Shown here: positions 2,027 to 62,854 of the stretch, piece by piece
Layout: each line of letters opens with the position of its first letter
Numbering within the stretch: position 1 is the stretch's first letter
DNA from: a virus
Reading direction: 5' to 3' (one strand)
DNA: 64,000 bases
Virus record (IMG/VR): IMGVR_UViG_3300009499_000053
Translations under genes and position numbers: made by a program
Notes under the pieces: model-generated
The model's input: only the letters and a program-made list of their open reading frames with translations
Told to the model about the DNA's origin: nothing
Database searches by the model: none

Positions 2027-3613
2027 ATGGAAGTAAGAGAGAAGATTAAAGCACAAGTCAAAGAAATCAGAAGGTCTTTGTTCGGTATAGATGAGATCAT
2101 TAAGATATACTGTCTGAGTAAAGCTGCAGATCTGACAGTGCTCATGCTAGGGGAACATGCTATTGCTAAGTCCTCTTTGGCTAGAGATTGGAGCACTACT
2201 ACAAGTCTTGACTTTCGTATAGTCACTAGCTCAGAAGTAGATGAGGCAATGATAGCCTACATAGACCCTGCTATCTTTAGAGAGAAGAATATAGTTCAAA
2301 TGAAAAGAGGAGAATTGATGCTGAGAGATCACATACTCGTAGATGAATTCTTTATGTGGTCTAATAAGTACAGGGCCAAGTTACACCAATTGCTTGAAGA
2401 GAAGACATATGCTGGTCTAGATATAAAAACTAAGACATATACCTTTGCTAGTAACCCAATTACGGAACACTATGCAGGACAACAGGATGAACGGAACCTG
2501 GCTACAGAGGATCGTATTGACTTACTGTTACCAATGTACCAACCTACTGTAACTCCCACCCAGAAGATGATGATGAAGTTCAATAAAAGAGGGAGACATG
2601 AGATAGAACTAGAACCCGTAGTTACATGGGATAATTACCTTGAAGCAAGAGATGACATTATGAAGGTAGAGATACCTCCTGACTTAGTGGTATGGCTTAC
2701 CCTCTTTGCAGAGTCTTTGAGTGCATGTAAGTACTCAGCTTCTAAGTTTGATGTATCTAGGGCTAGGATGCATACACTATGTGCAGAATGTAATCAACGT
2801 AAGCATCTCTGTGCTAAAGTAGCATTATCTAAACCAAGATTCCTAAGGGCAACTATCCTTCTAAGTAAGGCACTTGCATGGTATGATGAAAGGGAGACAA
2901 TCTCAGAAGAGGATGTCTTTGCTTCTGTGAAGTATACACTACCACACAGAATGATATTCCTACAAGAGGAAAGAACCATCTTCGAGGCAGAAAGAGCTCT
3001 TCCAGAGATCCTACAAGAGTTCATAGATGACTTTAACAACTGGGAAAGCAGAAAGATCTTTAGTCACCTTGAAGCATTGATTCTAAAAGCAATAAATGAT
3101 AAGAGTCCATACTTTGACCTAGAATCAGCTAATAATCTCCAGAGTGAGGTAGCAGAACACTTAGCCATAAATAACTATGTAAAAGAGGCCGTAATGAGGG
3201 TTCAACAGGAAGTGAAGAAACGTTACAGAGTAATCCTGAATGCTGGAAAGATCACAAATGTTGATGATATAAAGGAACTACTCAATAAATCTGGCTTAAA
3301 CCTCTATGATAAAGGAGAGATCCTAGAAGAGTACATGTCGAAGAATGAACTCTTAACCTTCTATCATGAGCTAGACAGAAGAGATACGAAGGCTCTAGAA
3401 CGAGTAGCTATTGCAGTAAGAGCACTACATCAGACAGAAACTCCTAATGTAAAGATAAAGTCCAAGATCAGATTAGTGAAAGCCTTTAAGAGAGAAATAA
3501 CCTATGCCTCAGACCTGATACTAATCAAGGAAGAAAGAGGAAGGATTAGGATAACAGCTTCTACACCTGATCTAAAGAAGAAGTTCGAGAAGTTACTGGA
3601 GGAAACTAAATGA
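2027..3613 (+). CDS. MoxR/RavA-like AAA+ ATPase
   Basis: Walker A variant GEHAIAKS, Walker B ILVDE, FASNP sensor, DR arginine finger, LPHR lid; VWA gene nearby. Confidence 0.8.
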   Translation: MEVREKIKAQVKEIRRSLFGIDEIIKIYCLSKAADLTVLMLGEHAIAKSSLARDWSTTTSLDFRIVTSSEVDEAMIAYIDPAIFREKNIVQMKRGELMLRDHILVDEFFMWSNKYRAKLHQLLEEKTYAGLDIKTKTYTFASNPITEHYAGQQDERNLATEDRIDLLLPMYQPTVTPTQKMMMKFNKRGRHEIELEPVVTWDNYLEARDDIMKVEIPPDLVVWLTLFAESLSACKYSASKFDVSRARMHTLCAECNQRKHLCAKVALSKPRFLRATILLSKALAWYDERETISEEDVFASVKYTLPHRMIFLQEERTIFEAERALPEILQEFIDDFNNWESRKIFSHLEALILKAINDKSPYFDLESANNLQSEVAEHLAINNYVKEAVMRVQQEVKKRYRVILNAGKITNVDDIKELLNKSGLNLYDKGEILEEYMSKNELLTFYHELDRRDTKALERVAIAVRALHQTETPNVKIKSKIRLVKAFKREITYASDLILIKEERGRIRITASTPDLKKKFEKLLEETK

Positions 3614-4401
3614 GTTATCTACCTAAAGAGGGAAAGAGAGCAGATTCCTTCCCTGACTATAGTAAGTACTTCTACGACTTCCTAAAGATACCTGAGACAG
3701 AGATCTTTAAGCAGTCTAAACAGGAAAGGGTAAAGCAAATTCTAATCATTATAGCAGGAACTATGGGAATAGGTAAGACTACACTCATAGAGAACATCAT
3801 CAATAACCTCCGGAAACACTATGGAATAGAGAAGACGAATACAGTTTATTCCCAAGTTTCCGCTAAGGTTCTAATGGAGTATGGATTCAAAGGAAATCCC
3901 ATGAGAGGATGGGATGCTGAGAAACCTATTCAGATATTAGTCTTTGATGATGCTACCTCTGCAAGACTAACTAAGAATGATCAAAGACAGTTCTGTAAGA
4001 TGAGACATCAGATGATGGATGATACAAAACTGACTGAGGGAGTAATATTCTCAATCCTGGTTACTCATGATTGGTATCGACTAGATCCTAACTTCCGTAG
4101 AAATGCCATTGTAACAGCCTTTCTCTCAGTATCTCCTCTAGATCAATACTCAAGAAGAGAGTATGGTAGAATCTTAGGAGAAGAAGGAGTACACTTTCTT
4201 TCAGAGAGATTATCTAAGTCTCTACGGTTTGATAAGGATAAGGGAACTGGTCTGGTAGTTCTACCTTTTGTACCTCCAGGAGAAAGGTCTAAGAAAGTAG
4301 GCTGTATTAAATGGAAGAACATACAGGATGTGAACTACATAGTTATTAAAGAACTTCCCTCGGGAAGATTAGTATGGAAGGAAAAGGTGAAACAGAAATG
4401 A
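3610..4401 (+). CDS. P-loop ATPase, A32/FtsK-HerA-like signature
   Basis: GTMGIGKTT, LVFDD, and MRH...SILVTH...LDPNFRRNA. Confidence 0.6.
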   Translation: MSYLPKEGKRADSFPDYSKYFYDFLKIPETEIFKQSKQERVKQILIIIAGTMGIGKTTLIENIINNLRKHYGIEKTNTVYSQVSAKVLMEYGFKGNPMRGWDAEKPIQILVFDDATSARLTKNDQRQFCKMRHQMMDDTKLTEGVIFSILVTHDWYRLDPNFRRNAIVTAFLSVSPLDQYSRREYGRILGEEGVHFLSERLSKSLRFDKDKGTGLVVLPFVPPGERSKKVGCIKWKNIQDVNYIVIKELPSGRLVWKEKVKQK

Positions 4402-4946
4402 ATGAAAAAGTAAACATGATAGAGGATGAGGAAGAAGAAATCTTAGAAAAGACAGGCCCAGATAAGAAACATAACGAGAGAGTCTTCAACTACAAGATTG
4501 CCTCTGAAGAAACTAGAGAGATAGAGGTAAGAGGAATTGCTTTCCTAGTTAAGTTCTACAAGACTACTACAGGAACTGCAGGGATCAGGGTTCAACTAGA
4601 AGACAATGGTCCAATATTCCAGAAGTTCTTAGAGTACTGTAAAGAGAACAAAGGTCAACGGATAGAGAAGGAAACACAAGCTAACCTAATGGCCTTCACT
4701 ACATTTGGTAAACTAGATCAGGGACTAGAGTTCTTTCCAGTAATGGGATTCTATATCTTCCCATTTGGAGATAAGACTACAGAACCACATCTAGTATTCA
4801 ATGAAGAGAAGGATGCTCCTGAACCTATGGAACGCTTAGAGGCATTCATGGACTACTACAAGAAGAAACTTGGTATAAAGGTAAGACCCAAGAAGAGCTC
4901 ATTCGATAGTCTTAGAAAGCTTGTCCTAACAGAAATAGGTGACTAG
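4374..4946 (+). CDS. hypothetical protein
   Basis: 190 aa ORF coupled to both neighbours. Confidence 0.6.
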   Translation: MEGKGETEMNEKVNMIEDEEEEILEKTGPDKKHNERVFNYKIASEETREIEVRGIAFLVKFYKTTTGTAGIRVQLEDNGPIFQKFLEYCKENKGQRIEKETQANLMAFTTFGKLDQGLEFFPVMGFYIFPFGDKTTEPHLVFNEEKDAPEPMERLEAFMDYYKKKLGIKVRPKKSSFDSLRKLVLTEIGD

Positions 4947-4947
4947 T

Positions 4948-5139
4948 ATGCCAACTCATGGAAGTATAAGTAAAGCAGGAAAGGTTCGTAATCAGACTCC
5001 CAAGATTGAGAAGACCCCTAGAAAGAAGAAGAGCCCTAAAGTAAACAACAGGAAGAAACACTACAAACGGTTCATACTAAACCAAGAAGTAGGACAGAGT
5101 GAAATAGGAAGAAGAAAACGTGGAAGACGCAGGGTATAA
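4948..5139 (+). CDS. rps30e: ribosomal protein eS30 (S30e)
   Basis: MPTHGSISKAGKVRNQTPKIEK...NRKKHYKRF matches the eS30 signature HGSLxxAGKVRxQTPK; ATG at 4948 preferred over GTG 4939. Confidence 0.92.
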   Translation: MPTHGSISKAGKVRNQTPKIEKTPRKKKSPKVNNRKKHYKRFILNQEVGQSEIGRRKRGRRRV

Positions 5140-5377
5140 TTCAGGTCTTTGCCCTAACCTTAAAGAATGTGGAGAATGGAGAGGAGAATGGTATTGGGGA
5201 TTCTGTCATCAAGACTTTGCCTGGTCACGATGCCCTCTGTTTATAAAGACAATCAACCCAAGTTCTAGATATCTAGGTATGGAAACCTTCCTTAAGTATA
5301 CTCAGTTAGAAGTAATGAGAAAGGCGTTGAAAGAGAATGTCAAAACCTATACAGGGAAACGTAGAAGTAATCACTAA
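5120..5377 (+). CDS. small Cys-rich protein with internal NPSSR motif
   Basis: CPNLKEC...C...CP, then INPSSR. Confidence 0.55.
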   Translation: MEDAGYNSGLCPNLKECGEWRGEWYWGFCHQDFAWSRCPLFIKTINPSSRYLGMETFLKYTQLEVMRKALKENVKTYTGKRRSNH

Positions 5378-6209
5378 GAAGAACTGGAAGAGGATTAAGC
5401 AGGAAGTAGAGGACTCTGTTCTCCGAGCCTGGAGAAATAGTAAACTTATTGTCCCTAGAATGGCCCTAGACTTCCGAGTACACTTCCAAGAAGTATATGC
5501 ATCATCAACTGGTAGAATCTGGGCTTTTACCCCTTTCTGGAGAGGAAGAGTCTTTACCGATGTTATCATGATGCATGAGTTTCTCCATTGGGCTATATAT
5601 CCTATAGATCTATGGAAGGGACTCTCTGACATGTTCAAGGCACGAAGAATGTTAGCAGAGGATCTTAAGTGGAAACCTACAAACAAGGAAACTGACCTCT
5701 ATGGAGAGGTAGAGGACTGGTCAGGTTTTGAATATGACATTACAGAATTCAGCTTTGTCCAGAATATCTTAGGAGACTATCTAATCAATCTTCATATACA
5801 TGATAACCATCCTATTCTCTTTGCTGATCTATGGAAGTTCCTTTACCATGATGGAACCTTCTATGAGCAACAGAAACAACTAAAGAGAGACTCTACCTTT
5901 ATTCTCTACCTATCAGCATACCCTGATCTTCTAAGTGACATAAAGGAAGAAGTTACCCTGATAGATCCAAAGTCAGAGAAGGACAAGGATAAGATCATAG
6001 ACATTATAGTAGAAGTACGACATGGTAGAATGAGTAAGGTCTACGCCATTAAGGAACTGACTAAGATCTTTCATCCGTACATAGTACAGGATCAGAAGGA
6101 TTCTAAGGGTAACAAGGGAGCAGAACCAAAGTGTCCTAAGTGTGGTCACGATGAGTTTGAGGTAGTAGGGTACGAGGATCCAAAGACAGGGAAGTGGGTA
6201 GATGTCTAA
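5337..6209 (+). CDS. HExxH metallopeptidase-like protein (MoxR/VWA-associated), C-terminal CxxC
   Basis: MHEFLHW, downstream NILGDYLIN, C-terminal CPKC. Confidence 0.65.
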   Translation: MSKPIQGNVEVITKKNWKRIKQEVEDSVLRAWRNSKLIVPRMALDFRVHFQEVYASSTGRIWAFTPFWRGRVFTDVIMMHEFLHWAIYPIDLWKGLSDMFKARRMLAEDLKWKPTNKETDLYGEVEDWSGFEYDITEFSFVQNILGDYLINLHIHDNHPILFADLWKFLYHDGTFYEQQKQLKRDSTFILYLSAYPDLLSDIKEEVTLIDPKSEKDKDKIIDIIVEVRHGRMSKVYAIKELTKIFHPYIVQDQKDSKGNKGAEPKCPKCGHDEFEVVGYEDPKTGKWVDV

Positions 6210-6372
6210 AGGATACTTTAACCCTTCAATGAGACATGATCTACATTTCCATGATAATTGGGGAGATCATGAGTGTCCAGCTAATAAATGTGAGTACATT
6301 GTCTTTGATGACTTTGGATACAGAATCGTCTATTGTAAGAACTGTGGTCAAGCAGATAGAAGGAAGCTATAG
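6202..6372 (+). CDS. small Zn-binding protein, N-terminal FNPSMR (not in ORF track)
   Basis: Manual translation MSKGYFNPSMRHDLHFH...CPANKC...YCKNCGQADRRKL*. Confidence 0.6.
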   Translation: MSKGYFNPSMRHDLHFHDNWGDHECPANKCEYIVFDDFGYRIVYCKNCGQADRRKL

Positions 6373-6383
6373 AGGATGAACAG

Positions 6384-6545
6384 ATGCCTAAGAGAATAGC
6401 ATGCCCTAATTGCAAAGGACATCTTAAGAGAGGGAGCCTAGCTCTAGATGAGAGAGCCTGGGAATGTGAGAATTGTCATACGATCTTTACAGATAAATAC
6501 CCAGTAGAAGAAAAGAAGGGAAAGTTTAACCCCAGTAAAAGATAA
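6384..6545 (+). CDS. Zn-ribbon protein ending FNPSKR (not in ORF track)
   Basis: Manual translation MPKRIACPNC...WECENC...KGKFNPSKR*. Confidence 0.65.
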   Translation: MPKRIACPNCKGHLKRGSLALDERAWECENCHTIFTDKYPVEEKKGKFNPSKR

Positions 6546-6564
6546 GTGTAATAGAACAGTATGA

Positions 6565-6765
6565 GTGACTCTCAGAATGAGTAAATTAGCACCTATAATA
6601 TGTCCAAGATGTCTTAGTAAGGAACTAAGGATAGCAAAGGCTACGTTTGTCACTAAACCTTATCTGATTCACTACTGTCTATGTGGATGGGTAGAAACTA
6701 GAAAATACCGTAAAGGATTAGTACCTATGATCCTTAAAGATTCATTTAACCCGAGTATGAGATAG
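6565..6765 (+). CDS. Zn-ribbon protein ending FNPSMR
   Basis: CPRC...CLCG; terminal motif. Confidence 0.65.
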   Translation: MTLRMSKLAPIICPRCLSKELRIAKATFVTKPYLIHYCLCGWVETRKYRKGLVPMILKDSFNPSMR

Positions 6766-6766
6766 A

Positions 6767-6967
6767 ATGTATAAACCTCCTCAGATATTTCAACCTAAAC
6801 CTGCCCCTGTTTATCAATTCTTGGAGCTAAAGTGTCCTCATTGTGGGTATGAGATCTACCGACCCTACCGTGAATTAACAGACTTACCATCAGAAATACT
6901 ATGTATAAAGTGTGGAAAGCACTACTCTGTATCCAGTCAATGGAATCCTTCGAGGAGATACTTATGA
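6767..6967 (+). CDS. Zn-ribbon protein ending WNPSRRYL
   Basis: CPHC...CIKC; motif. Confidence 0.65.
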   Translation: MYKPPQIFQPKPAPVYQFLELKCPHCGYEIYRPYRELTDLPSEILCIKCGKHYSVSSQWNPSRRYL

Positions 6968-7152
6968 GTAAACATGTTCATTGTCCAAAATGTAATGCCC
7001 AAGGTTACTTAAAGGCACATAAAAAAGAATGGAGTATATTCATTTGCCGAAGATGCAGATGTCTCTTCTCAGTGTCACAGAGCGATTTAGAACAGATACA
7101 TGAGACATCTGACACAGAAGTGGTACTCCCCTTTAATCCTAGTTCGAGGTAG
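6964..7152 (+). CDS. Zn-ribbon protein ending FNPSSR
   Basis: CPKC...CRRC; ATG 6964 overlaps the previous stop. Confidence 0.65.
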   Translation: MSKHVHCPKCNAQGYLKAHKKEWSIFICRRCRCLFSVSQSDLEQIHETSDTEVVLPFNPSSR

Positions 7153-7157
7153 TAATA

Positions 7158-7409
7158 ATGAGAAGACCCCGGTTTGAGGAAGTCTGTATCCATCCTTTCT
7201 ATCTTAAGAAGAAGAAACTATGTATCCACCCAGATGACAGAATCTTCTTCTTTGAACATCCGGCCTTCTTCGATAAATCTTTCTTTAGTTCTGATAAAGT
7301 ATTCAAACCCTTTCAGTTAGGAATGATTTATGGATATGAGGTCTTTGTTCAGGATGATATGCAGATTATGCTCCTAAGTATGAATGGAGGAAAGAGTGTT
7401 GAAGATTAA
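7158..7409 (+). CDS. hypothetical protein
   Basis: Coupled ORF with a duplicated CIHP. Confidence 0.45.
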   Translation: MRRPRFEEVCIHPFYLKKKKLCIHPDDRIFFFEHPAFFDKSFFSSDKVFKPFQLGMIYGYEVFVQDDMQIMLLSMNGGKSVED

Positions 7410-8397
7410 GATAAAATGTACTAAATGTAATTGGGAAGCAGTAGTAGAGGTATCACGCTCCCCCTTAGGTTCTCTAAAACCAGGTAAAGCTATCAAGGGT
7501 ACAGGGAAAGGACTGAAAGTTAAGTGGACAAAGGAACAACTGGATAAGGTTATGGATGCTGCTGGAGGACTAGGTGCCTCTAGAGATGAGCTAGGTCAGG
7601 TAGGTATCCGTGTCCCCATTCCTCAGTGGGTAGACGCCCTGGAACGTAGAAGACTTAGACAGTTTGTAAGGAAGCATCTAAAGGTCTCTAAAGATTTAAG
7701 AAACGCTCAGGGAGAAAGAAGTCAAGTATCTACTGCTCCTTGGCAAATGGGAGATTCTTTCAAAGATGTAGATCTAGCCTCTAGTGAAATTGCAGCCTAT
7801 GGAGTTCCCGATCTTCGTCTTATTCCTGGAGTAACCCTACAGAAGAGGGTCTTTGAGACTACTAAGGGAGGAGACCGAGAGATACTTAGGGGAATAAAGT
7901 TCTTTAACATCATAGATGTCTCAGGAAGTATGTTCGGCGGATCAAGTCAAAGTCAAGGAAATATCGATAAGGTTCACAAAGCACTTATGATGGCCGAAGA
8001 GACATCAAAGATCTGTAAGAAGTTAGGTTATGACTACAACTTGTCTATCTTCTCTGGTATAGCTACTAGGATTCCCAAGAGAAAGATCAAAAGATTCTTT
8101 AAATCTGAGACTGAAAGAGCAACCTATCCTGGATGGAATGGAGGAACTACACTATCATCTGCTCTCGGACTATACGATCTAAAGGAACTCAAGGATGGAA
8201 ACTTGGTCATAATGTCTGACATGGATATATCTGACTCTGAGGAATCTAAGAAGAAGTTGAAAGAGATAGGAAATGTAACCTCATCCTTCAAGGTAGTAAT
8301 TATAGAGTATCGTTCTCAACTAAGGAAAGAAAGATTAATAAGAACAAGGGAACTATTTCCAGATAAGAAAGTACAAATACTCCGAATAGCAATCTAA
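7384..8397 (+). CDS. von Willebrand factor A (VWA) domain protein
   Basis: MIDAS DVSGS, GGT, SD motifs; N-terminal CTKC. Confidence 0.8.
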   Translation: MEERVLKIKIKCTKCNWEAVVEVSRSPLGSLKPGKAIKGTGKGLKVKWTKEQLDKVMDAAGGLGASRDELGQVGIRVPIPQWVDALERRRLRQFVRKHLKVSKDLRNAQGERSQVSTAPWQMGDSFKDVDLASSEIAAYGVPDLRLIPGVTLQKRVFETTKGGDREILRGIKFFNIIDVSGSMFGGSSQSQGNIDKVHKALMMAEETSKICKKLGYDYNLSIFSGIATRIPKRKIKRFFKSETERATYPGWNGGTTLSSALGLYDLKELKDGNLVIMSDMDISDSEESKKKLKEIGNVTSSFKVVIIEYRSQLRKERLIRTRELFPDKKVQILRIAI

Positions 8398-8586
8398 ACA
8401 GGAGGATCTATTATTGCCGAATAAAAAAGAAACAAAAGATTTCGAGATGAAGTCAGAATACTGGGAAGTAACAATAGACAAGGCAGACCATTCTGAGATT
8501 AAGTACATCATCGTCTTCAAGGATAAGGTGATCCCAGTGGGAGAACTAAGAAAGCTTGAAGAGGCTATAAGGAAGGTTCTCGAAGC

Positions 8587-8808
8587 ATGTGGCCGTATAG
8601 AGACTTTGCATCCTTCAAAACGCCAATAAATCTTGACAAATGCAAGGTCTGTGGTACCTATGTCTGTCTTGTACCAGTGACCTATGGCAATGCATTGTTT
8701 GGATACGTCTGTGGCCTCTGTGCAGGGATCCTATTCACGAAAGGGAACCTTAGAATAGGTTTCAACCCAAGCTCTAGAAACCCCTGGAGGATAGTGAAAG
8801 TAAAATGA
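8587..8808 (+). CDS. Zn-finger protein with FNPSSR
   Basis: CKVC...CGLC; motif near C-terminus; start uncertain. Confidence 0.55.
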   Translation: MWPYRDFASFKTPINLDKCKVCGTYVCLVPVTYGNALFGYVCGLCAGILFTKGNLRIGFNPSSRNPWRIVKVK

Positions 8809-9032
8809 CAAAAGTAATACTTGAAGAAGATTCCTGGATTAGATGGATAGACAAAAAAGGCAATGGTACAATAAGAGTAGGTCAAGTTAAGAGACGAATA
8901 AAGGATAAGCCCTTTGATAGTCAGAATATAACAGTGGCTACTCCTAACTATGGAGAAACACAGTTAGATGTTAGTACAATCATAGAGGTCTTCCCTAAAA
9001 TAACAATAAGATTTAATCCTTCGGAGCGATAG
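8805..9032 (+). CDS. small protein ending FNPSER
   Basis: Terminal motif. Confidence 0.6.
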   Translation: MTKVILEEDSWIRWIDKKGNGTIRVGQVKRRIKDKPFDSQNITVATPNYGETQLDVSTIIEVFPKITIRFNPSER

Positions 9033-9034
9033 AG

Positions 9035-9325
9035 ATGAAACTACAAGGAATGTTCAAATGCCCTCAATGCGGAGGAGAGTTTGATGCATGCAGACCCAGT
9101 GGTCCTGGTAGAATCTGGGCTCATTGTGTAAGTTGTTCTCTAGTAGTTATTATAGAAGACTACAAACTCTGGCTAAGACGAGCACAGAGAAGAAAACAAC
9201 AAAAAACGGGAGTTCATGGTAGTAAATCGTATTCAGGAACGTTAGTCTACCCAGGTTTTGATACAGGGAAAACAAAGGAAATAGAGAAAAAGGAAAAGGA
9301 TGAATACAATCCAACGGAGAGATAA
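9035..9325 (+). CDS. Zn-ribbon protein ending YNPTER
   Basis: CPQC...CVSC; terminal motif. Confidence 0.65.
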   Translation: MKLQGMFKCPQCGGEFDACRPSGPGRIWAHCVSCSLVVIIEDYKLWLRRAQRRKQQKTGVHGSKSYSGTLVYPGFDTGKTKEIEKKEKDEYNPTER

Positions 9326-9329
9326 TTAG

Positions 9330-9602
9330 ATGCCTTATATAAAAGAAGAGGATCGTGTACCGATTAGTAGATATCTAAATGATCTGATAGCAATACTCAG
9401 AATCAAGACAGATAAGGGAAAACAAAGCAATGGTCAGGTAGTTTATGCTATCTATAGGATTATCAAGGAAGTCTATGGAGAAGGACGTTTTGAAGTAAAG
9501 AGTAATGCTTTGAAAGTCTTGGATGCTGCAGGTAAGGAATACTACAGACGAATCATGGTTCCGTACGAAAAAGAGAAGATCAAGGAAAATGGAGACGTCT
9601 AG
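9330..9602 (+). CDS. conserved viral hypothetical protein (MPYIK-type)
   Basis: MPYIKEEDR...EYYRRIMVPYEKEKIKENGDV, a pattern I recognise from a widespread small phage family. Confidence 0.6.
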   Translation: MPYIKEEDRVPISRYLNDLIAILRIKTDKGKQSNGQVVYAIYRIIKEVYGEGRFEVKSNALKVLDAAGKEYYRRIMVPYEKEKIKENGDV

Positions 9603-9864
9603 TTTGGGTCTCAATTACTTTAAGTGTAAAATCTGTGGATTCTCTTTTCTAGAACTGTACAATCTTGAACACCATATGCTAACTTATCATAGGAAAGAAC
9701 ATACCCTAAAGAGGAAACAAGGTAACTTTGGTTGTTATTGGAGATGTTCCGAGTGTGGAATGGCATTCAAGAATGTGAAAACAGCTCTCAATCATTCAGG
9801 AGAAATGAATCATAATCCGACAGAGAGAATCGAACTGGATGGCTTTAATCCTTCGAGGAGATAA
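9589..9864 (+). CDS. C2H2 zinc-finger protein with two motif copies (HNPTER, FNPSRR*)
   Basis: CKIC...HHMLTYH; CSEC...H...H. Confidence 0.65.
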   Translation: METSSLGLNYFKCKICGFSFLELYNLEHHMLTYHRKEHTLKRKQGNFGCYWRCSECGMAFKNVKTALNHSGEMNHNPTERIELDGFNPSRR

Positions 9865-9865
9865 T

Positions 9866-9976
9866 ATGTGGGAATGTCCTTTCTGTGGTTCTGAGGCAGA
9901 GAGAGTCTTTCCTAGAGACTATACTTCGCGTTTAATCTATTGTCCAGTTTGTAAGGTTCATACTTCTCCAAACTAA
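9866..9976 (+). CDS. 36-aa Zn-ribbon microprotein (not in ORF track)
   Basis: MWECPFCG...IYCPVCKVHTSPN*. Confidence 0.55.
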   Translation: MWECPFCGSEAERVFPRDYTSRLIYCPVCKVHTSPN

Positions 9977-9978
9977 AG

Positions 9979-10023
9979 ATGGCAGAGAAAGAATTCAATC
10001 CAACAAAAAGAGGGGAAAATTAA
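9979..10023 (+). CDS. 14-aa micro-ORF made essentially of the motif (MAEKEFNPTKRGEN)
   Basis: Starts 2 nt after the upstream stop; its stop abuts the next ATG at 10024. Confidence 0.45.
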   Translation: MAEKEFNPTKRGEN

Positions 10024-10368
10024 ATGAGTGATGAAGGAAAGAAAAAGATCAAGATAGACAGGTATAATCCAAGCTCTAGGAAGAACGAAATAATAGAGAT
10101 AGAGCAGGTACAAATAGGAACAGTAAAGTACAAAGACATTGGAGATAACTTTGAATGCCTTGTAGGGATAGAGACAGAAGATTCGGATGCTGGTTTGTAC
10201 AGAGGAAAGAGTGTAACTATGAACTCACCCAGGAGAATATCTAGGATTAGGTGGGATGTATCTAAACACCACAGCCTAGGAGATAGAGTAGATCTTAGTC
10301 CCAGAGATATTCAAGTCCTAGATGCAATCCTTCAATACCTAAAGAAAATGGGTTACCATGTGGGATAA
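10024..10368 (+). CDS. hypothetical protein with N-terminal YNPSSR
   Basis: Motif near residue 14. Confidence 0.6.
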   Translation: MSDEGKKKIKIDRYNPSSRKNEIIEIEQVQIGTVKYKDIGDNFECLVGIETEDSDAGLYRGKSVTMNSPRRISRIRWDVSKHHSLGDRVDLSPRDIQVLDAILQYLKKMGYHVG

Positions 10369-10566
10369 GAAAGATGGGCAAAGTGAAAGACATACTAAAG
10401 AAACTTAGAGGAAAACAAGGGACTATTTCAGATCTAGAGATTCCACCGGATCATGTTAGATGTTCAAGGTGTAAAAAGACAGTTCCTAAGGGAAAGGCTA
10501 CTGTTGACCTAGAGGCCTCGACAAGACGTACAGAGGTATGGGTCTGTGATGGATGTTTCTTTGGAC

Positions 10567-10809
10567 ATGCAATCTAAGGAATACCCCTCTAATCTTCGGG
10601 GAAGACTCTCGGAACAGACCAGATGTGAAGTCTGTAAAGACTTTCTCAATGATTCTTGGTGTCTAACAAGCGTATGTCAGATTTGTTGTGAGAAGGGACG
10701 TTGTAGGAGAAAAGAACATTGTTGTGTCTATCCAGATATCCTAGTTCGTCTACAGTATCAGAAAAAAGAAAGTGTGATCTATAATCCATCTAAGAGGATA
10801 AAGATTTGA
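10567..10809 (+). CDS. Cys-rich protein ending YNPSKRIKI
   Basis: Multiple Cys; motif. Confidence 0.6.
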   Translation: MQSKEYPSNLRGRLSEQTRCEVCKDFLNDSWCLTSVCQICCEKGRCRRKEHCCVYPDILVRLQYQKKESVIYNPSKRIKI

Positions 10810-11090
10810 CCCTTAAAAAGAGAGAATGTTATTACTGTAAGACAGATGTTACTGAGGGTGAACGTCTGAGGATCAGTTTAATGGCAGGAAAGGCTAAGTA
10901 TGTTGGTACTAGCTTACAAAGTAGTGGACAGCTTGAAAAGATTTATGTCTGTTCTGACTGTTCTAGAGATTACTTTGAACTCATAGTTATGGGACACAGT
11001 AATACGCACAATCACTTAAAGTTAATACTCCAAAGAATGATTCCTACTAAGAGAATAAAGAAAAGAGAATGGAACCCTACGGAGAGATAA
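10806..11090 (+). CDS. Zn-finger protein ending WNPTER
   Basis: CYYC...CSDC; terminal motif. Confidence 0.65.
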   Translation: MTLKKRECYYCKTDVTEGERLRISLMAGKAKYVGTSLQSSGQLEKIYVCSDCSRDYFELIVMGHSNTHNHLKLILQRMIPTKRIKKREWNPTER

Positions 11091-11092
11091 TC

Positions 11093-11503
11093 ATGAAAGC
11101 CTATGTTGATGGATCCTCTACTGGTCTCTACGGATATGAGATAACTACTCCAAGAAAGGAGAGGAGTCTTGTCAGAGACCATCCAATGACAAATAACCAA
11201 GCAGAATGGTTAGCTCTAGTTCATCTACTTATGAACCTAGAGCCCAGAACAAAGTTAACTATCTTCTCTGATTCTCAGATAGTTGTTAATCAGTTAATAG
11301 GGGCATGGGAGACTAGGGACAAGGAGATGCGACACCTTAAGGGAGTTGCTAGGGAACTAATAGAGATAAAGGAACTAAACGTTAAGATGATCTGGATTCC
11401 AAGGAAACAGAATGTCTTTGGTTGGTATCTAGATAAGATCATGAAACATCGTAGGAAGAAGAGAAGGAAGCGTAGAGAGAGGATAAGGAGAGGATATAAT
11501 TGA
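11093..11503 (+). CDS. rnhA: RNase HI-like protein
   Basis: YVDGS, TNNQAEWLAL, DSQIVVNQ, WIPRKQN. Confidence 0.85.
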   Translation: MKAYVDGSSTGLYGYEITTPRKERSLVRDHPMTNNQAEWLALVHLLMNLEPRTKLTIFSDSQIVVNQLIGAWETRDKEMRHLKGVARELIEIKELNVKMIWIPRKQNVFGWYLDKIMKHRRKKRRKRRERIRRGYN

Positions 11504-12711: not shown

Positions 12712-12922
12712 GATTCAAAAGGAAAAAGACCAAGACTTATATCAAGATAGAGTTTGATAAAAAGACTCAGGAGATTAGGATAGAAGTAGAACCAGAGACT
12801 GTAAGACCTACTGAGATAATCCAGACTCTTATGCTAGCAATAAACGTTATAAGCCAGACTCTACAAAAGGAGTTAAAGGCGAAGAAAGAAAAGAAGAAAC
12901 CAAAGAAGTTGGGATATATTGG

Positions 12923-13688: not shown

Positions 13689-13690
13689 TA

Positions 13691-13978: not shown

Positions 13979-13980
13979 GT

Positions 13981-14381: not shown

Positions 14382-14383
14382 AA

Positions 14384-14789: not shown

Positions 14790-14792
14790 GAA

Positions 14793-22974: not shown

Positions 22975-24708
22975 ATGACATTAAAATTAAGTGAAAACGC
23001 TAAATATATTCTAAGTCAGAGGTATCTCTTAAAGGATGAGAATAGGGAACTCATTGAAACACCTATACAGATGTTCAGACGGGTTGCTAAGGCAGTAGCA
23101 GCATCAGAGTTTAAGTACGGAAAGACCAAGAAGGATGTAAAGAAGTATGAACGAGACTTCCTACGGATGATGACTAGTCTGGAGTTTCTACCCAACTCTC
23201 CTACGTTGATGAATGCAGGTACAGATCTAGGTCAGTTGAGTGCTTGTTTTGTTCTTCCTGTAAGTGATAGTATTGATGAGATCTTTCTAGCAGTAATGTA
23301 TACTGCAAGGATTCACAAGACTGGAGGGGGAACTGGGTTCTCATTCTCACGATTAAGACCAAAGGATGACATTGTTAAATCTACAGGTGGAGTAGCCTCA
23401 GGTCCCCTATCCTTTATGACATGTTTTGATACTGCTACAGAGGTAATTAAACAGGGTGGAAAGAGAAGAGGAGCTAATATGGGTGTCCTCAGAGTAGATC
23501 ATCCTGATATCCTAGACTTCTTAGTGGAGAAGGAGCAAGAGGGGAAACTTAGGAATTTTAATCTCTCAGTTGCCTTAACTGATAAGTTCCTAAATGCTGT
23601 AGAGAAGGAGGCAGACTTCAGTCTTATTAATCCAAGAACTAAGAAGGTAACCAATACTATTAGAGCTAGGACTATCTGGAACCTTCTAATCACTATGAGT
23701 TGGAAGAATGGAGAACCAGGAGTCATCTTCTTAGATCAGATGAATAGGGCAAATCCTACACCAAAGGTAGGAGAGATAGAGGCTACAAACCCATGTGGTG
23801 AACAACCATTACTACCCTATGAATCCTGTAACCTGGGTTCTATTAACCTCTCTAAGTTCATCAAGAAGAATGGACAGATAGACTGGGAGAAACTTAAGAG
23901 AACGGTCAGACTAGCAGTTCGTTTCCTAGATAATGTAATAGATGCTAACAAGTATCCACTACAGGAGATAGCGAACCAGACCCTAGCTAATAGAAAGATA
24001 GGTCTGGGAGTGATGGGCTTTGCTGATCTTCTTCTAAGACTAGGAATAAGGTATGATACCAAGAAGGCAGTAGACCTTGGAAGAAAGATAATTAAGTTCA
24101 TTAAAGAAGAGGGATTTAAGATGTCACAGGAGCTAGGAAAGGAGAAGTCAAGCTTTCCGAATAAGAGAAGGTCTATCTTTAAGGATATACCCTACCTAAG
24201 GAATGCCACAATTACAACCATTGCACCTACAGGAACAATCTCTCTAATAGCTAACTGCTCCTCTGGGATAGAACCAATCTTTGCAGTGGTACAGAGAAGG
24301 AACGTAAAAGAGAGTCTAGGAAAGGATCTAATAGAAATCAATCCTGCCATTAAGATCTCCCTTGAGTTGAAGGGACTATGGTCTGATGTCATGGAGGAAA
24401 CTTTGAGGAAGACAGAATGCGCTAAGTGTCTCTTGATTCCTAAAGCAATGAGGGACGCCATAGTTACCTCTGCTGAGATCTCTCCTAAGTGGCATGTAAG
24501 GATGCAAGCAGCCTTTCAGGACTATACGGACAATGCTGTTTCCAAGACAATAAACCTACCCAATAAGTCTACTGTGGATGACATTGAGAGGGTCTACCTA
24601 TTAGCTTATAAGTTGGGATGCAAAGGTATTACTATATACAGGGATGGAAGCAGAATATTCCAGTTATTAACTAAGGGAGGAAGGGTATCATGCCCCAAAT
24701 GTGGTTAA
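22975..24708 (+). CDS. nrdJ: class II (adenosylcobalamin-dependent) ribonucleotide reductase
   Basis: PNSPTLMNAG, QLSACF, RRGANM, NPCGEQPL, TIAPTGTIS, AVSKTIN, KGITIYRDGSR. Confidence 0.92.
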   Translation: MTLKLSENAKYILSQRYLLKDENRELIETPIQMFRRVAKAVAASEFKYGKTKKDVKKYERDFLRMMTSLEFLPNSPTLMNAGTDLGQLSACFVLPVSDSIDEIFLAVMYTARIHKTGGGTGFSFSRLRPKDDIVKSTGGVASGPLSFMTCFDTATEVIKQGGKRRGANMGVLRVDHPDILDFLVEKEQEGKLRNFNLSVALTDKFLNAVEKEADFSLINPRTKKVTNTIRARTIWNLLITMSWKNGEPGVIFLDQMNRANPTPKVGEIEATNPCGEQPLLPYESCNLGSINLSKFIKKNGQIDWEKLKRTVRLAVRFLDNVIDANKYPLQEIANQTLANRKIGLGVMGFADLLLRLGIRYDTKKAVDLGRKIIKFIKEEGFKMSQELGKEKSSFPNKRRSIFKDIPYLRNATITTIAPTGTISLIANCSSGIEPIFAVVQRRNVKESLGKDLIEINPAIKISLELKGLWSDVMEETLRKTECAKCLLIPKAMRDAIVTSAEISPKWHVRMQAAFQDYTDNAVSKTINLPNKSTVDDIERVYLLAYKLGCKGITIYRDGSRIFQLLTKGGRVSCPKCG

Positions 24709-38549: not shown

Positions 38550-41129
38550 ATGCGTGGAGTGCTTACAAGAGTTGAGCAGAAGATAGAGGAATGGCCAAAG
38601 GGCACTGGTAGGAAGAAGTCTGTCATTTGGCTCTTCATTAGAGGAGAGGATAAGAAGAGGTACGTCTTTAAGGATCCTTTCTTTGAACCCTACTGTTACT
38701 TTAATAGGGGGGTACTGAATGTGACCTCTTTCCCTAAGGAGGTTAAGAAACATGCAGTGGTGAAGATAGAGGGTAAGAGTTATGTAAAGGTCTGGACTGA
38801 CTTTCCTACGTCTGTTGCTAAGTTAAGGAATATTGTGGAGCATAAGAAGCCTAACATAGTTACTACTTTTGAGGCAGATATTGTCTTTCCCCTAAGGTAC
38901 ATCATAGATAAGTTGATTAGGGGACCAGTGGAGTTTGATCCTGGTCAAGGGAATATAAAACCGATAGATGAGAATATTCCATCTAACCTACGTATCCTAA
39001 TCCTTGACATTGAGACACTTGGTAATGAAATAATCTGTCTGACTATATGGGATAATTATGATGAGAAGTACTATACGTGGTACTGGAGAAAGAATCCCCT
39101 TATGATAGAGGAGGAGAAGGATTGGGTAATAACCTGGTGTGAAGACGAGGTATGGATGCTTAAGGAAGCACTTAAGTTCATTAGAAAGAAGAACCCTGAT
39201 GTAGTTACAGGGTATAACGTTGACTTTGACTTAGTGGAAATAAGGAAAAGGGTTCTATCCCTAGCCTCTCCTGAGGTTGGAACAGCATGGGATTATATCT
39301 GTCCTATGCAGGGGAAGACTAGAGCTGACGTCTACCGTATGCCTCCTCCCAGAGATAGGAGAAAGAAGTTTAGAGACTTCTGGGTAAAAAGTAAACACCA
39401 GAGAATACCAGGAAGGAATGTAGTAGACCTTCTACAGATCCTGATGAAGATAGGAAAGCATCAGTTATCTGAGTTTAACTTGGACTTTGTAGCACGGCAC
39501 CACCTTAAACCTTCTATGGGGAAGAGGAAGTTCAATGGGATAATCATCTCTAAGATGTTAGGTAAGATGTGGAATAAACATCCAGTAGAGGTCTTAAAGT
39601 ATAACAAGATGGATGTAGAACTCTGTGTGGAACTGAATAAACAACTAGCCCTGATTGCCTTTGCTGATGAGATAAGAAAGTTTGTGGGGATTCAACTAGA
39701 TGATATTCAGTCTAATAAGAGGATAGCACACATAGAACTACTAAGGAAGAGTAAGAAGCCCTTCCCTGTAACAAAGAGGGAGAAGAGGTCATTCAAGGGT
39801 GCCATAGTAATTGAACCTAAGAAAGGGGTCTATAAGTGGGTCATTGTAATGGACTTTACCTCTCTATATCCTTCAGTTATTCTACAGTTGAATATTGATC
39901 CTGATACATACATTAGCACTAAGTGGAGACACAAGTACAACATTACCAATGCATACATCCTAAAGGATAAGGATGAAAATACAGAGTATTGGTTTAAGAA
40001 GAAGCCTGAGGGAGACCTATCTGCTGTTCTGAGGAAGTTCTTAGCACTTAGAAAGGATAAGAAGATTGAACTAGAGAGGACTAGAAAGACAGGGAATAAA
40101 GAGTTAACTGCTATTCTAGATACCCAACAGTATGCCCTAAAGGTGATAACTAATGCATTCTATGGGTCACTAATGTATAGGGGACAACCATCAGCTTGGA
40201 TGTGTGCTAGGGCTATTACCTGTGGAGCAAGGGAGTCTATTAGGTTTGCTAAGAAGGAAATAGAGAAGTTAGGATACATGGTAATCTATGGTGATACAGA
40301 CTCAATAATGATTGCCTCTAAGTTTAGTAGTTATAAGAAGGTGGTGGAGGAAGCAGACTATCTAAGTAAAAGGGTCTCTGTTAAAATGCCTAAGTTTCTT
40401 AGTTCCTTTGGAGGAACAGGAGATAAGAGCTACATTAACTTAGCACTGGATAAAGTCTTTAAACACTTCCTAATGGATGAGAAGAAGAAGAGGTATGCAG
40501 GAATACCCATAACTAAGTATGGAGAGGACAAATTAGAGGTAAAGGGTTTTGGGACAGTAAGATCAGATACGTCTAAGTTTACAGGAGAATTACAGAGAAG
40601 ACTACTTAAGGAGATCCTACTAGAGAAGGAGAAGGGAAGGATAAAGTACCTTACTGAACTAGAGTTGGAGGAGTTTACTAGAAGACCTCTAACTGAGATA
40701 GGGGTCCCCTGTGTATTGACTAAGCCACCTAGTAAGTATAAGGGTAATTCAATACAGAAGAAGGCATTTCACTTTACCAATAAATACCTGGGAGGAGACT
40801 TTAGGGTAGGGGATAAACCTAAGAGGATCTATGTAAAGACACTCACAGAGAAGGCTCCCATAGAGATGATAGAACCAAAGGGTGTAGATGTCATAGTCTA
40901 TGACGTAAATGATCTAAAGCTTCCTGATTGGTTAGAGATAGACTACCCAAAACAGGTGAATAGGACTGTAAAACCTAAGATAGAGAAAGTACTACAGTTT
41001 GTAGAGATAGAATGGAAGGACCTGAAGTTACCTAGTATACTGATTAAGAAGAAGAAGAAACGGAAGAAGAAGGCAAAGAAGTTGAAGAAGGCAAGGGAGT
41101 TAGTAAAAGGACAGACCAAGCTTGGCTGA
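38550..41129 (+). CDS. polB: family B DNA polymerase
   Basis: ExoI DIET, ExoII GYNVDFD, ExoIII YNKMD; DFTSLYPS, KVITNAFYG, YGDTDS, KKRY. Confidence 0.95.
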   Translation: MRGVLTRVEQKIEEWPKGTGRKKSVIWLFIRGEDKKRYVFKDPFFEPYCYFNRGVLNVTSFPKEVKKHAVVKIEGKSYVKVWTDFPTSVAKLRNIVEHKKPNIVTTFEADIVFPLRYIIDKLIRGPVEFDPGQGNIKPIDENIPSNLRILILDIETLGNEIICLTIWDNYDEKYYTWYWRKNPLMIEEEKDWVITWCEDEVWMLKEALKFIRKKNPDVVTGYNVDFDLVEIRKRVLSLASPEVGTAWDYICPMQGKTRADVYRMPPPRDRRKKFRDFWVKSKHQRIPGRNVVDLLQILMKIGKHQLSEFNLDFVARHHLKPSMGKRKFNGIIISKMLGKMWNKHPVEVLKYNKMDVELCVELNKQLALIAFADEIRKFVGIQLDDIQSNKRIAHIELLRKSKKPFPVTKREKRSFKGAIVIEPKKGVYKWVIVMDFTSLYPSVILQLNIDPDTYISTKWRHKYNITNAYILKDKDENTEYWFKKKPEGDLSAVLRKFLALRKDKKIELERTRKTGNKELTAILDTQQYALKVITNAFYGSLMYRGQPSAWMCARAITCGARESIRFAKKEIEKLGYMVIYGDTDSIMIASKFSSYKKVVEEADYLSKRVSVKMPKFLSSFGGTGDKSYINLALDKVFKHFLMDEKKKRYAGIPITKYGEDKLEVKGFGTVRSDTSKFTGELQRRLLKEILLEKEKGRIKYLTELELEEFTRRPLTEIGVPCVLTKPPSKYKGNSIQKKAFHFTNKYLGGDFRVGDKPKRIYVKTLTEKAPIEMIEPKGVDVIVYDVNDLKLPDWLEIDYPKQVNRTVKPKIEKVLQFVEIEWKDLKLPSILIKKKKKRKKKAKKLKKARELVKGQTKLG

Positions 41130-59812: not shown

Positions 59813-62800
59813 CTATATTGCTACTTTCTTTCCTACTAGACAGATATCATCTACATACATTTGATTGACTTTATAACTCATTTCCACCTTAACCTCGGTT
59901 ATAATCTTTCCAGCAGTTAGGTAGGGAGTAAGGTCTACCTCTAAGTAACTACCATTACCACCTGATAGGTTAGTAATCTCTGTTGTAGTACTATCTGAGT
60001 AGGTAATAGTTACATCTACCTTATCTATCCAAGGACAGGATCCGGAATACAACCAGATACTAAATGTAACAATGTCATCTACTGGGGCATTAACTCCTGT
60101 CTGTTCTATGTATTCTCCAACTGTATCAAACATGGCCTTAAATGTACCACTATGGGTACTGCCAGTACTTATCGTTGGAGGTAGAGTAGAGGACCATCCA
60201 CTTAGACCACCTGACTCGAAACCACAGTTCTGGATACATGCAGTAACAGCTTCAAGTTGTTCAAAGGTCATCTCACACGCAGTTCCTTCCTCATCCTCAT
60301 ACTTAAGGGTTAGTTCTTTTAACTGGTAGTAGTACATCTCATCATCTGTTTCAGGTATTCCTATGACAAACTGATCTCCAGGGTTCCAATTCTCTATACC
60401 ATCAAGAAGTCCCTTAGCCCTTCTTAGGTGGTAAAGTGGATCCTTATACCTGTTAATTATCTCCAGTGCCCACCTACTAGCTGCAGTATCAGAGAATATA
60501 GAATCATCAAAGATTTCCTTGAACCAGATACCATGACCACTTGGAGGATCTGCCATGGAAGCAGGATCACTACTTCTCCCAAACCACTTACCACTGTCTA
60601 GGTGAATCCAGTCTACTAGGAGACGAGCCCACTCGGAACTATCTCCTCTCCAGGTTACTTGTGTACTTATATTGAACTTAACTACATTACTCCAGTCAAA
60701 GTTAGCCCCTGACTTCTCCCATTTACCCTCTATCTCAGAGTCAGGTCCTACTGGGATTCTTACCTCAACTAGGTTCTCTGGGATCACTTGTTCAGACTTA
60801 ACGTATTCTATTCTTCTATCCTTGCTATAGGTTCCTCCACCAGCAGCAGTCTTGTACTGGTATCTTACCTCTAACTGCTCACCTAGGTCACCAGTAATAT
60901 GGACTGAAGGTTCATAGGTCTTCTCTGCAGTTGTTCCATAGTAGGCCTCAGCATAGAGGTTTCTAATACAACATTGATTTCCTGAGATTCCTTTTCCTTG
61001 ACCTTGGACAACTAAGGAATGCCCAGGATCCCCTTGATTAGAGACTGTAGTGGACTCTAGTATCCAGACCCTTCCTGTGTGTCCCCATCCACCAAGGTAA
61101 GTCGTATCACCATTGAACGTTCTTCTAAACCTCATCCATGCTGTTGATACTCCCGAACTCCACCACTCAGCCCTTACGTAAGTAAGTCTAACCCTGGTAT
61201 AGACATCTGGGGCATCAAATCCTAGACAGTTTACAAGATCTGTATATGTGAGAGCTGTAGTGCAACCAGGACCAGAACCAGTACAGGTATGTAGAACCTC
61301 TATAGGATCTGTTGTTATATCATCCCCAGTAGCATCAGGATCTACAGTTGTCCAATCACCAGAACCACCGAATCTATACTGTATCCTTGAGTATCCATCG
61401 ATTCCAAACCATGTATTCCTAAATATATCCTTTACATTGGTTAGGGTAATTCTCTCTGTACCAGCACAGGCTACATCAATTGTACAATGACTAACGTAGG
61501 ACTCAGAGGCAGTTGAGTGTGTAGAAGCATCTAGGGCCCAGGAACCCTCAGTAGGAGCTTCATACGTCTTAAGAAGATCATACATCTGTTCAGCAGGATA
61601 AGTTACTAAGTCTCCGGAGGAATCCTCTAGGGTAAATATAACCTCCAACTTTGGGAAAGAGGTTAACTCTGCTCCAGATATAATCCTAGCAGAGAATACT
61701 AACTCCTTAAAGGCATTCTTGGGAGTTAAGTCAACTGTACTTGGGAAGGTAAACTCTAGGTTAAGATCAATTGGTTGTGTCCCTAGGGAGTCATTAGCTA
61801 TTGAACGAGTCCCAGCTCTTACAGCAAGTGTACTTAGGAACAGAGCTCCCTGTGCAGTGGCCCAATATGTTAGTTTATCAGACCAAGGATCAGGATTATT
61901 TGCTGTTGGAACTGGACTTATCTTATTCTGATGACCATAGACATCAACTGTATTTACCAGATTGTCCTCTGTGACCTCATAGTTATAGTCCCAGAAATCA
62001 TCTATTCCAAAGGTATCCTTGACTGGTGTACCTGTTCTAGGGAAGAACTGTAGACGTTTATTCTGATCAACATAGAACTCAGACTGAGTAATAAAGGCTA
62101 ACTTTCCTAGACAGTCAAGTAGGGACTCTCCCACAAAGTCAACTGTTCTGGTCTTATTAGAGTTAGTTACCTGACTTAGGTTAATAGCACGTTCATTAGG
62201 ATATGGGGGATCATGAGCAGTATCTATCTCAGCTAGGACTGAGTTTATGATTGAGTTAATGTTAGTTACTGTAGCAAAGGAAGAAGTAATCTTAGTCTCT
62301 AGAAGAAGCTTACCATAATCTAGGATTGAAAGTCTCAATTTCTGTTCAGCATTTTCCTCTTCCCAGAATCGTTCTACTGAGTCTACTTCCCCTGTAAAGA
62401 CAAGCTTCTCAAGACCAGAGTTCTCTGAACCATAGTAGATCCTAACCTCATCTCCCTCTCTAAAGTCATGAACATCAGAATTATCAAGAAGAACCTCTCC
62501 ACTACCAACTTCATCAGTTAAGGACTTAGTAAACTCCCAGTTCTCTATATCTCCCTGGTCTAGTCCCAGTGTTGCTCCATTTCTCCAGATCTCTATCCTA
62601 AAGGTCTCATGTAGTTCCTGTTTATATTTACTGCACTGATCAACTAGGCTAAGATTCTCTGATAGATTCTTACCCACCTTGAGTATCTTCTCATCCTCTA
62701 GAAATAACCATTCAGAAGTAAAGGACTTTACCCCAGGCTCCTTTTTCTGTGTATCAGATACAGTAAAAGTCTCTTCAAGCTCAAGCTTAGTTTCCTTAGA

Positions 62801-62854
62801 TATCTCATCTGAAACAGTTAAGGTCTCAGTCAGATTAATTGTATTATCAGCCAA
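59813..62854 (-). CDS. tail/baseplate hub-like structural protein with C-terminal carbohydrate-binding-like domain
   Basis: VFTGEVDSV, FYVDQNKRLQFF hub-like motifs; NCGFESG...W; position after tape-measure-like and distal-tail-like genes. Confidence 0.6.
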   Translation of the reverse strand: MADNTINLTETLTVSDEISKETKLELEETFTVSDTQKKEPGVKSFTSEWLFLEDEKILKVGKNLSENLSLVDQCSKYKQELHETFRIEIWRNGATLGLDQGDIENWEFTKSLTDEVGSGEVLLDNSDVHDFREGDEVRIYYGSENSGLEKLVFTGEVDSVERFWEEENAEQKLRLSILDYGKLLLETKITSSFATVTNINSIINSVLAEIDTAHDPPYPNERAINLSQVTNSNKTRTVDFVGESLLDCLGKLAFITQSEFYVDQNKRLQFFPRTGTPVKDTFGIDDFWDYNYEVTEDNLVNTVDVYGHQNKISPVPTANNPDPWSDKLTYWATAQGALFLSTLAVRAGTRSIANDSLGTQPIDLNLEFTFPSTVDLTPKNAFKELVFSARIISGAELTSFPKLEVIFTLEDSSGDLVTYPAEQMYDLLKTYEAPTEGSWALDASTHSTASESYVSHCTIDVACAGTERITLTNVKDIFRNTWFGIDGYSRIQYRFGGSGDWTTVDPDATGDDITTDPIEVLHTCTGSGPGCTTALTYTDLVNCLGFDAPDVYTRVRLTYVRAEWWSSGVSTAWMRFRRTFNGDTTYLGGWGHTGRVWILESTTVSNQGDPGHSLVVQGQGKGISGNQCCIRNLYAEAYYGTTAEKTYEPSVHITGDLGEQLEVRYQYKTAAGGGTYSKDRRIEYVKSEQVIPENLVEVRIPVGPDSEIEGKWEKSGANFDWSNVVKFNISTQVTWRGDSSEWARLLVDWIHLDSGKWFGRSSDPASMADPPSGHGIWFKEIFDDSIFSDTAASRWALEIINRYKDPLYHLRRAKGLLDGIENWNPGDQFVIGIPETDDEMYYYQLKELTLKYEDEEGTACEMTFEQLEAVTACIQNCGFESGGLSGWSSTLPPTISTGSTHSGTFKAMFDTVGEYIEQTGVNAPVDDIVTFSIWLYSGSCPWIDKVDVTITYSDSTTTEITNLSGGNGSYLEVDLTPYLTAGKIITEVKVEMSYKVNQMYVDDICLVGKKVAI

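Follow-up and report, generated by a model that had tools for sequence, protein, structure and literature searches.

A gene for ribosomal protein eS30 in the genome of a head-tailed archaeal virus

One algal giant virus encodes the ribosomal protein eL40, and the antisense fau insert carried by the murine retrovirus FBR-MuSV acts via RNA, not as a ribosomal protein. In the survey of Mizuno et al. (2019, PMC6375957) this insert is the only form in which eS30 occurs. The phage-encoded ribosomal proteins described there (bS21, bL12, bL9 and others) are small and peripheral, have a sporadic distribution among related viruses, and were proposed to replace the host copies. In viruses of archaea, L21e is found in haloarchaeal tailed viruses of the Hafunaviridae (PMC8651126) and bL19 in the Bathyarchaeia virus Kunpengvirus (PMC10541130); S6e, L15, L15e and L30 have been listed for proviruses (PMC13573593). 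A literature search yielded no published report of eS30 or eS26 in an archaeal virus. The distribution of both is confined to Thermoproteota (TACK), Asgard archaea and eukaryotes (PMC11698992). In Saccharolobus, the N-terminal 20 residues of eS30 reach helix h44 and the A site, with roles for Pro2 and a histidine, and archaeal eS26 regulates leaderless versus Shine-Dalgarno (SD)-led initiation, an excess of the protein disfavouring SD-led mRNAs (PMC11698992).

The eS30 gene described here belongs with the virus-encoded ribosomal proteins. Like phage bS21, bL12 and bL9, its product is a small peripheral protein that is encoded amid viral genes and occurs sporadically, but those proteins are members of bacterial families in bacteriophages. 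The Hafunaviridae L21e and Kunpengvirus bL19 genes are, as in this case, ribosomal genes of archaeal head-tailed viruses. However, they encode large-subunit proteins and there is one per genome, whereas the present virus carries two genes for small-subunit proteins, eS30 and eS26, from opposite ends of the mRNA channel. The cellular archaeal eS30 of Saccharolobus solfataricus (PDB 9fhl, PMC11698992) resembles the viral copy in the N-terminal MPxHGSxxKAGKVRNQTPKI, in its high basicity and in the alignable residues 1-45. Cellular archaeal eS30 proteins of 52-54 aa and the viral protein of 63 aa fall in one length class. What sets the latter apart is that it is virus-encoded, that its C-terminal third is distinct, and that its identity to the best cellular match is 58%.

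The eS30 gene and its surroundings

The window, by which we mean the whole stretch of 64,000 nucleotides that was analysed, corresponds to bases 8066-72065 of a 133,079-bp IMG/VR record of class 'provirus' with a CheckV completeness of 86%. A syntenic sister virus is present as a 125-kb contig (JABAOC010000279.1) in NCBI assembly GCA_012975005.1. The features of the window that are relevant here are as follows.

2027-3613, plus strand: MoxR-like AAA+ ATPase, 70% identical in the sister virus (Pfam AAA_lid_2, bpMoxR, AAA and RNA_helicase for 2027..4401)
3610-4401, plus strand: P-loop NTPase, also part of the gene string upstream of eS30, 69% identical in the sister virus
4374..4946, plus strand: gene for a 190-aa protein with no assigned function (from the ORF list), sister-virus homologue 59% identical
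4938..4942, plus strand: SD-like GGTGA, read in the sequence, 5 nt ahead of the eS30 start codon
4948..5139, plus strand: eS30 (ribosomal protein S30e) gene, 63 aa, pI 12.0, 22 Lys and Arg residues, Pfam PF04758
5151..5290, plus strand: Cys-rich micro-ORF ending in INPSSRY, directly 3' of eS30, about 80% nucleotide identity with the sister virus
5337..6209, plus strand: downstream neighbour, gene for a 290-aa protein with an HExxH motif, 68% identical in the sister virus
22975..24708, plus strand: ribonucleotide reductase (Pfam Ribonuc_red_lgC, E 1.6e-134), part of the replication/nucleotide module
38550..41129, plus strand: family B DNA polymerase (Pfam DNA_pol_B, E 9.8e-50), a context of autonomous replication
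59813..62854, minus strand: first large gene of the virion module, with a weak PHROG baseplate-hub match; the module runs past the window to capsid, portal and terminase

The original prediction of an intact eS30 gene was confirmed. The sequence and the ORF list agree on a reading frame of 63 codons with ATG at 4948 and TAA at 5137-5139. Its product matches Pfam Ribosomal_S30 (PF04758) with 47.1 bits (E 2.9e-12), the gathering cut-off of this family being 27 bits, and a six-frame search of the genome gave a score of 45.7 bits. With phmmer, residues 1-45 were aligned to eS30 chains of crenarchaeal ribosomes in the PDB (9e71_Ba and 9fhl_e, E about 3e-11). An alignment of 26 sequences, composed of the window protein, 23 database homologues and two viral ones, contains 12 invariant columns (H4, G5, K9, A10, K12, V13, R14, Q16, T17, P18, K19 and P30), all of which are kept in the viral protein. 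The archaeal N-terminal signature M-P-x-H-G-S-x-x-K-A-G-K-V-R-x-Q-T-P-K is present as well, including Pro2 and the conserved histidine, and apart from L7I and T8S the first 20 residues (MPTHGSISKAGKVRNQTPKI) are those of the cellular consensus. Because the protein begins with MPTHGS like its homologues, the start codon is ATG 4948 and not GTG 4939. The small size and strong basicity fit a family in which proteins have about 50-65 aa. Positions 4948-5139 almost certainly represent a genuine virus-encoded eS30 gene.

The C-terminal third of the viral protein (FILNQEVGQSEIGRRKRGRRRV) is close to no cellular sequence. With the closest cellular eS30 at only 58% identity and none above about 60%, no donor of the gene was identified. 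This closest sequence (P0002) was considered as a possible viral relative and rejected, since its contig is cellular, with genes for a PLP enzyme, an MS channel, HSP20 and trehalose synthesis, and since its upstream neighbour is unrelated to that of the viral gene. The GC content of the viral gene (40.6%) and its GC3 (37.5%) are similar to those of adjoining genes, and the gene is identical in all assemblies of this virus, with zero sequence variation among them.

An SD-like core is found at -18 to -3 in 71% of 104 called viral genes, compared with 22% of control positions. The 190-aa gene, whose product gave no Pfam or PHROG match, ends with a stop codon located 1 nt ahead of the eS30 start, and because of this spacing the two genes are probably co-transcribed and translationally coupled. 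The micro-ORF at 5151-5290 forms the downstream edge of the eS30 insertion and differs from its sister-virus counterpart mostly at third, or synonymous, positions. It has the pattern CPxxxxCxxWRGxWYWGFCxQDFAWxxCP...INPSSRY. The sister copy (L084 about 15,990-16,130) is devoid of an ATG, GTG or TTG start past the preceding stop codon, and the sole start candidate of the window copy is a GTG within the 3' end of eS30. Many small zinc-ribbon ORFs ending in [FWY]NP[ST]xR are present in the ORF list for window positions 6200-11100 and elsewhere.

The eS30 gene is thus positioned in a replication or early-type block on the plus strand, outside the virion module. The description originally given, of an eS30 gene amid viral genes and away from any ribosomal operon, is accurate in that the neighbours are viral or have no assigned function and no other ribosomal protein gene is located close to eS30 within the window. 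The lone position itself carries no weight and is evidence of nothing, since cellular eS30 genes likewise stand alone among unrelated genes.

Circularity of the genome and the question of host DNA

The virion module that starts in the window includes three hallmark genes in the remainder of the IMG/VR record.

Record 77152-78189, minus strand: HK97-type major capsid protein
Record 94719-96155, minus strand: portal
Record 96521-98032, minus strand: large terminase

The record further encodes a RadA-like protein and many glycosyltransferases. When the capsid protein was compared with GenBank phage and archaeal-virus records, the sole match was a weak one, to a Bacillus phage.

The viral location that had been claimed for eS30 is borne out by these capsid, portal and terminase genes, by the viral genes on both sides, and by closure of the sequence into a 156.9-kb circle. 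An independent ENA contig (ERZ27249619:k141_918870, 157,032 bp) is a circular permutation of the IMG/VR record: genes from the left and right ends of the record, which are 130 kb apart in it, are 26 kb apart on k141_918870, with orientation kept. Two pieces, L013 and L009, cover the 23.8-kb gap from the record's end to its start. The joins found with blastn lead from the record end to L013, from there to L009 and back to record base 1, which gives a circle of 156,891 bp, equal to 157,032 minus an assembly overlap of 141 bases. The 23.8-kb segment that had been trimmed from the record matches the rest of the genome in GC content (0.404) and tetranucleotide profile (r 0.98). The genome is circular or circularly permuted, and because the record ends join into the 156,891-bp circle there is no room for a host flank. 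A chimera is ruled out by the eS30 locus being 100% identical on a contig from another sample (JGI Ga0209979_1000794, 38,887 bp; sample JGI 3300024353). Sequence and gene order across eS30 agree in k141_918870, Ga0209979_1000794 and the IMG/VR record.

These results bear on the possibility that eS30 is a host gene, either in the flank of an integrated provirus or placed next to viral DNA by a chimeric assembly. Such an origin would be in line with the IMG/VR label 'provirus' and with the cell-like genes near the record ends (eS26, Alba, topoisomerase IB, tRNAs and aRF1). However, the signs of integration, which are an integrase, an attachment site at a tRNA and host genes past the boundary, were not found. 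The genome contains no integrase (no PF00589 match), the tRNAs form a viral array, and there are no recognisable host genes at either end of the record. The sister virus carries the 'cell-like' segment too, in conserved order, and eS30 itself lies 13 kb inside the record, flanked by genes common to the sister virus. In combination with the permuted contig and closed circle, the uniform composition and the identical sequence on the 38.9-kb contig, these observations make a host gene extremely improbable. The two cases against which the original prediction had to stand both failed, an ordinary host chromosome because the circle closes without an integrase or a host flank, and an assembly chimera because independent assemblies share sequence and gene order across eS30. 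Most likely, the 'provirus' label is a boundary-caller artefact that arose from the cell-like genes in the trimmed segment. The automated trimming removed 23.8 kb of DNA holding eS26, the tRNAs, Alba, topoisomerase IB and aRF1. The records of large viruses can lose translation genes through boundary calls of this kind, and surveys of viral ribosomal proteins may undercount.

Further translation genes and related viruses

The eS30 gene is part of a large set of genes for translation and RNA repair, to which the following loci of this virus and its sister are relevant.

L013:5474-5767, outside the window: eS26 gene, 97 aa, Pfam 60.9 bits, with GGAGGTG ahead of a GTG start
L013 about 12,600-15,700 (circle 143,154-146,217): array of 15 tRNAs, with one odd anticodon call
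L083:6433-8374, in the sister virus: array of 14 tRNAs at the equivalent place
L013:16893-18440: eukaryote-type topoisomerase IB, 515 aa, best named relatives in Bathyarchaeia (46-47% identity)
L009:6169-7137: aRF1-like protein, 322 aa, with NIKS and GGQ motifs, shorter than cellular aRF1, 71% identical in the sister virus
L009:7527-7835: Pth2-like peptidyl-tRNA hydrolase, closely after the aRF1-like gene
L002:1745-3636, L002:4116-5354, L012:5774-6361, L009:3130-3930 and L004:9222-10331: RNA-repair and quality-control set of Ro60/TROVE, RNA ligases, archease, RlaP and a CCA-adding-type nucleotidyltransferase

Along its entire length the viral eS26 can be aligned with Saccharolobus eS26 (9fs6_b), and both CxxC pairs are retained; its counterpart in the sister virus is 66% identical, with conserved synteny. 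The aRF1-like and Pth2-like genes may form a termination or ribosome-rescue module. Alba and RlaP are encoded in the trimmed segment, and the other members of the RNA-repair set (Ro60/TROVE, the RNA ligases, archease and the CCA-adding-type nucleotidyltransferase) in the IMG/VR record itself.

Some further observations were made at these loci. Ro60/TROVE is apparently split into two ORFs, a split that is also seen in the sister virus. Topoisomerase IB has several closer, unnamed homologues on long contigs that may be related viruses. The region before eS26 (L008:8800-13080 and L013:1-3200) is taken up by about 20 paralogous ORFs arranged in tandem; they are roughly 90 aa long and have a K/R-rich [LFV]WxxLF motif at the N terminus. 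Inside the head-morphogenesis block, the minus-strand regions L003:8954-13239 and L004:276-2525 encode an ATP-dependent DNA ligase whose N terminus carries a C2H2 finger, a LonB-like protease and a protein with a weak, sub-threshold match to LigD phosphoesterase.

The sister virus shares, besides eS26, the aRF1-like, MoxR-like and P-loop proteins and the tRNA array listed above, also topoisomerase IB (50% identity), RlaP and Ro60. At its eS30 site, about 115 nt of AT-rich non-coding DNA separates the homologues of the 190-aa gene and the micro-ORF, and the homologue of the 290-aa HExxH protein comes after that of the 190-aa protein without eS30 between them. No eS30 was found at the syntenic site of the sister contig or, by tblastn, in its first 38.5 kb. 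The empty site indicates that eS30 is a lineage-specific gain or was lost by the sister virus, whereas eS26 is common to both. It also indicates that eS30 is dispensable for this type of virus and could be a passenger.

Among 2.9 million viral contigs of IMG/VR, four others contain eS30-like ORFs.

L015: genome of 91,361 bp, bounded by direct terminal repeats and rated 100% complete; eS30-like gene at L015:9944-10162 with a 16-residue N-terminal extension, directly before a 754-aa head-module gene
L016: 8.3-kb fragment; eS30-like gene at L016:7669-7860, directly after the capsid gene and past the terminase and portal genes
L017 and L018: contigs of 77 kb and 136 kb; eS30-like ORFs with a partly eroded QTPK core

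The 91-kb genome and the present virus have terminases with only 27% identity, and on the other three contigs no match to the terminase of the present virus was obtained. eS26 is absent from all four, and no relatives of the viral eS26 were detected in IMG/VR. GenBank phage and archaeal-virus records contained no eS30, and PHROG families included neither eS30 nor eS26. Evidently, eS30 entered archaeal tailed viruses several times, or it is old and patchy there.

Host and possible role of the viral eS30

The host, with small subunits of the eukaryote type, should be a member of the Thermoproteota or an Asgard archaeon, because eS30 and eS26 are limited to these groups and eukaryotes. To this level the original proposal that eS30 points to the host lineage is supported by the family distribution, but the phylogeny of eS30, from which a closer assignment had been expected, fails to provide one. 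In a tree of 66 rows with 59 usable columns the virus is placed in a polytomy with Asgard, Baldr/Odin and a Bathyarchaeia/UBA141 clade, and the five viral sequences form no supported clade. A host call from the tree was rejected, as 59 columns leave this polytomy. The best matches of eS30 are 50-60% identical and spread across Bathyarchaeia, Nitrososphaerota, Asgard archaea and Desulfurococcales, and the best named matches of eS26 are from Ranarchaeia (Asgard, 62%), Bathyarchaeia (57%) and Thorarchaeota (57%). A call from the best matches of eS30, eS26 and topoisomerase IB was also dropped, since eS26 leans to Asgard and topoisomerase IB to Bathyarchaeia. On balance, a Bathyarchaeia-like host takes about half of our estimate, an Asgard host a little over a third, and any other host the small remainder.

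The explanation that accounts best for the data, and that we consider rather likely, is a functional eS30 of a ~157-kb head-tailed archaeal virus that acts on host ribosomes. The gene would be expressed from the long plus-strand gene string, as is suggested by its own GGTGA site and by a start codon 1 nt past the upstream stop. The protein would occupy the usual eS30 position at the mRNA entry channel of the host 30S subunit, and its N-terminal tail (Pro2 and His4) would lie at helix h44, close to the A site. In this position it would top up or replace host eS30, with translation continuing or being retuned during infection, and it would act alongside eS26 at the mRNA exit channel, the 15 tRNAs, the aRF1-like factor, Pth2 and the RNA-repair genes. 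Judged from its sequence, incorporation into ribosomes is a somewhat favoured role for the protein. Since the whole N-terminal tail is kept, the simplest reading would be that the viral eS30 acts in the manner of its host counterpart and does not poison the ribosome, while the divergent C-terminal third could mediate altered contacts in the entry channel. That the virus modulates host ribosomes, as was suggested at the outset, is probable, and this view is strengthened by the presence of eS26 and other translation genes in one genome with eS30.

The absence of eS30 from the syntenic site in the sister virus, where the flanking proteins are 59-70% identical, would also be compatible with a recently captured, host-derived passenger, lodged between a pair of conserved viral genes, with a selected function that is slight or absent, and destined to be lost again. 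The insertion is small and comprises a single gene, and genes for ribosomal proteins often have a sporadic distribution among viruses (PMC6375957). However, the gene is intact, and the retention of every family-invariant residue argues for constraint. Its GC and GC3 fit the virus, the lack of any cellular eS30 above about 60% identity implies that the capture was not recent, and the SD site and the tight coupling with the upstream gene also count against a passenger. eS30-like genes moreover recur on the four other virus contigs. We therefore regard a passenger as unlikely. Those same contigs provide the argument for another possibility, that eS30 was co-opted for a non-ribosomal job as a basic (pI 12) DNA or RNA binder, for example as a DNA-condensing factor in the capsid or an internal head protein. 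One of the copies (L016) directly follows a capsid gene, another (L015), on an unrelated tailed-virus contig, just precedes a large head-module gene, and the eroded QTPK core on L017 and L018 suggests that ribosomal constraint is relaxed for some of the viral copies. In the present virus, however, the gene is in the plus-strand replication block and not in the virion module, it retains the rRNA-contacting N-terminal tail, which a general polyanion binder would not need, and the genome also holds eS26 and many translation genes. This makes a non-ribosomal role improbable, more so than that of a passenger.

The accompanying eS26 is like the Saccharolobus regulator in its full-length match and both CxxC pairs. 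Yet excess Saccharolobus eS26 disfavours SD-led mRNAs, whereas the viral genes are mostly SD-led, and for this reason the simple idea that eS26 gives leaderless viral mRNAs an advantage was dropped. A wider idea, which we put forward tentatively and consider doubtful, is that the virus remodels both ends of the 30S mRNA channel, with eS30 at the entry and decoding side and eS26 at the exit and anti-SD side, and that these proteins, together with the tRNAs, the aRF1-like factor and Pth2, would yield virus-specific ribosomes in a Thermoproteota or Asgard host. If true, it would mean that a virus has taken over the very ribosomal proteins that are markers of the archaeal-eukaryotic transition in translation initiation. 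The archaeal roles of eS30 and eS26 are only beginning to be studied, and the viral variant pair offers ready-made probes. The combination of the two genes is also a host-range marker, as it means that the host needs ribosomes of the eS30/eS26 type.
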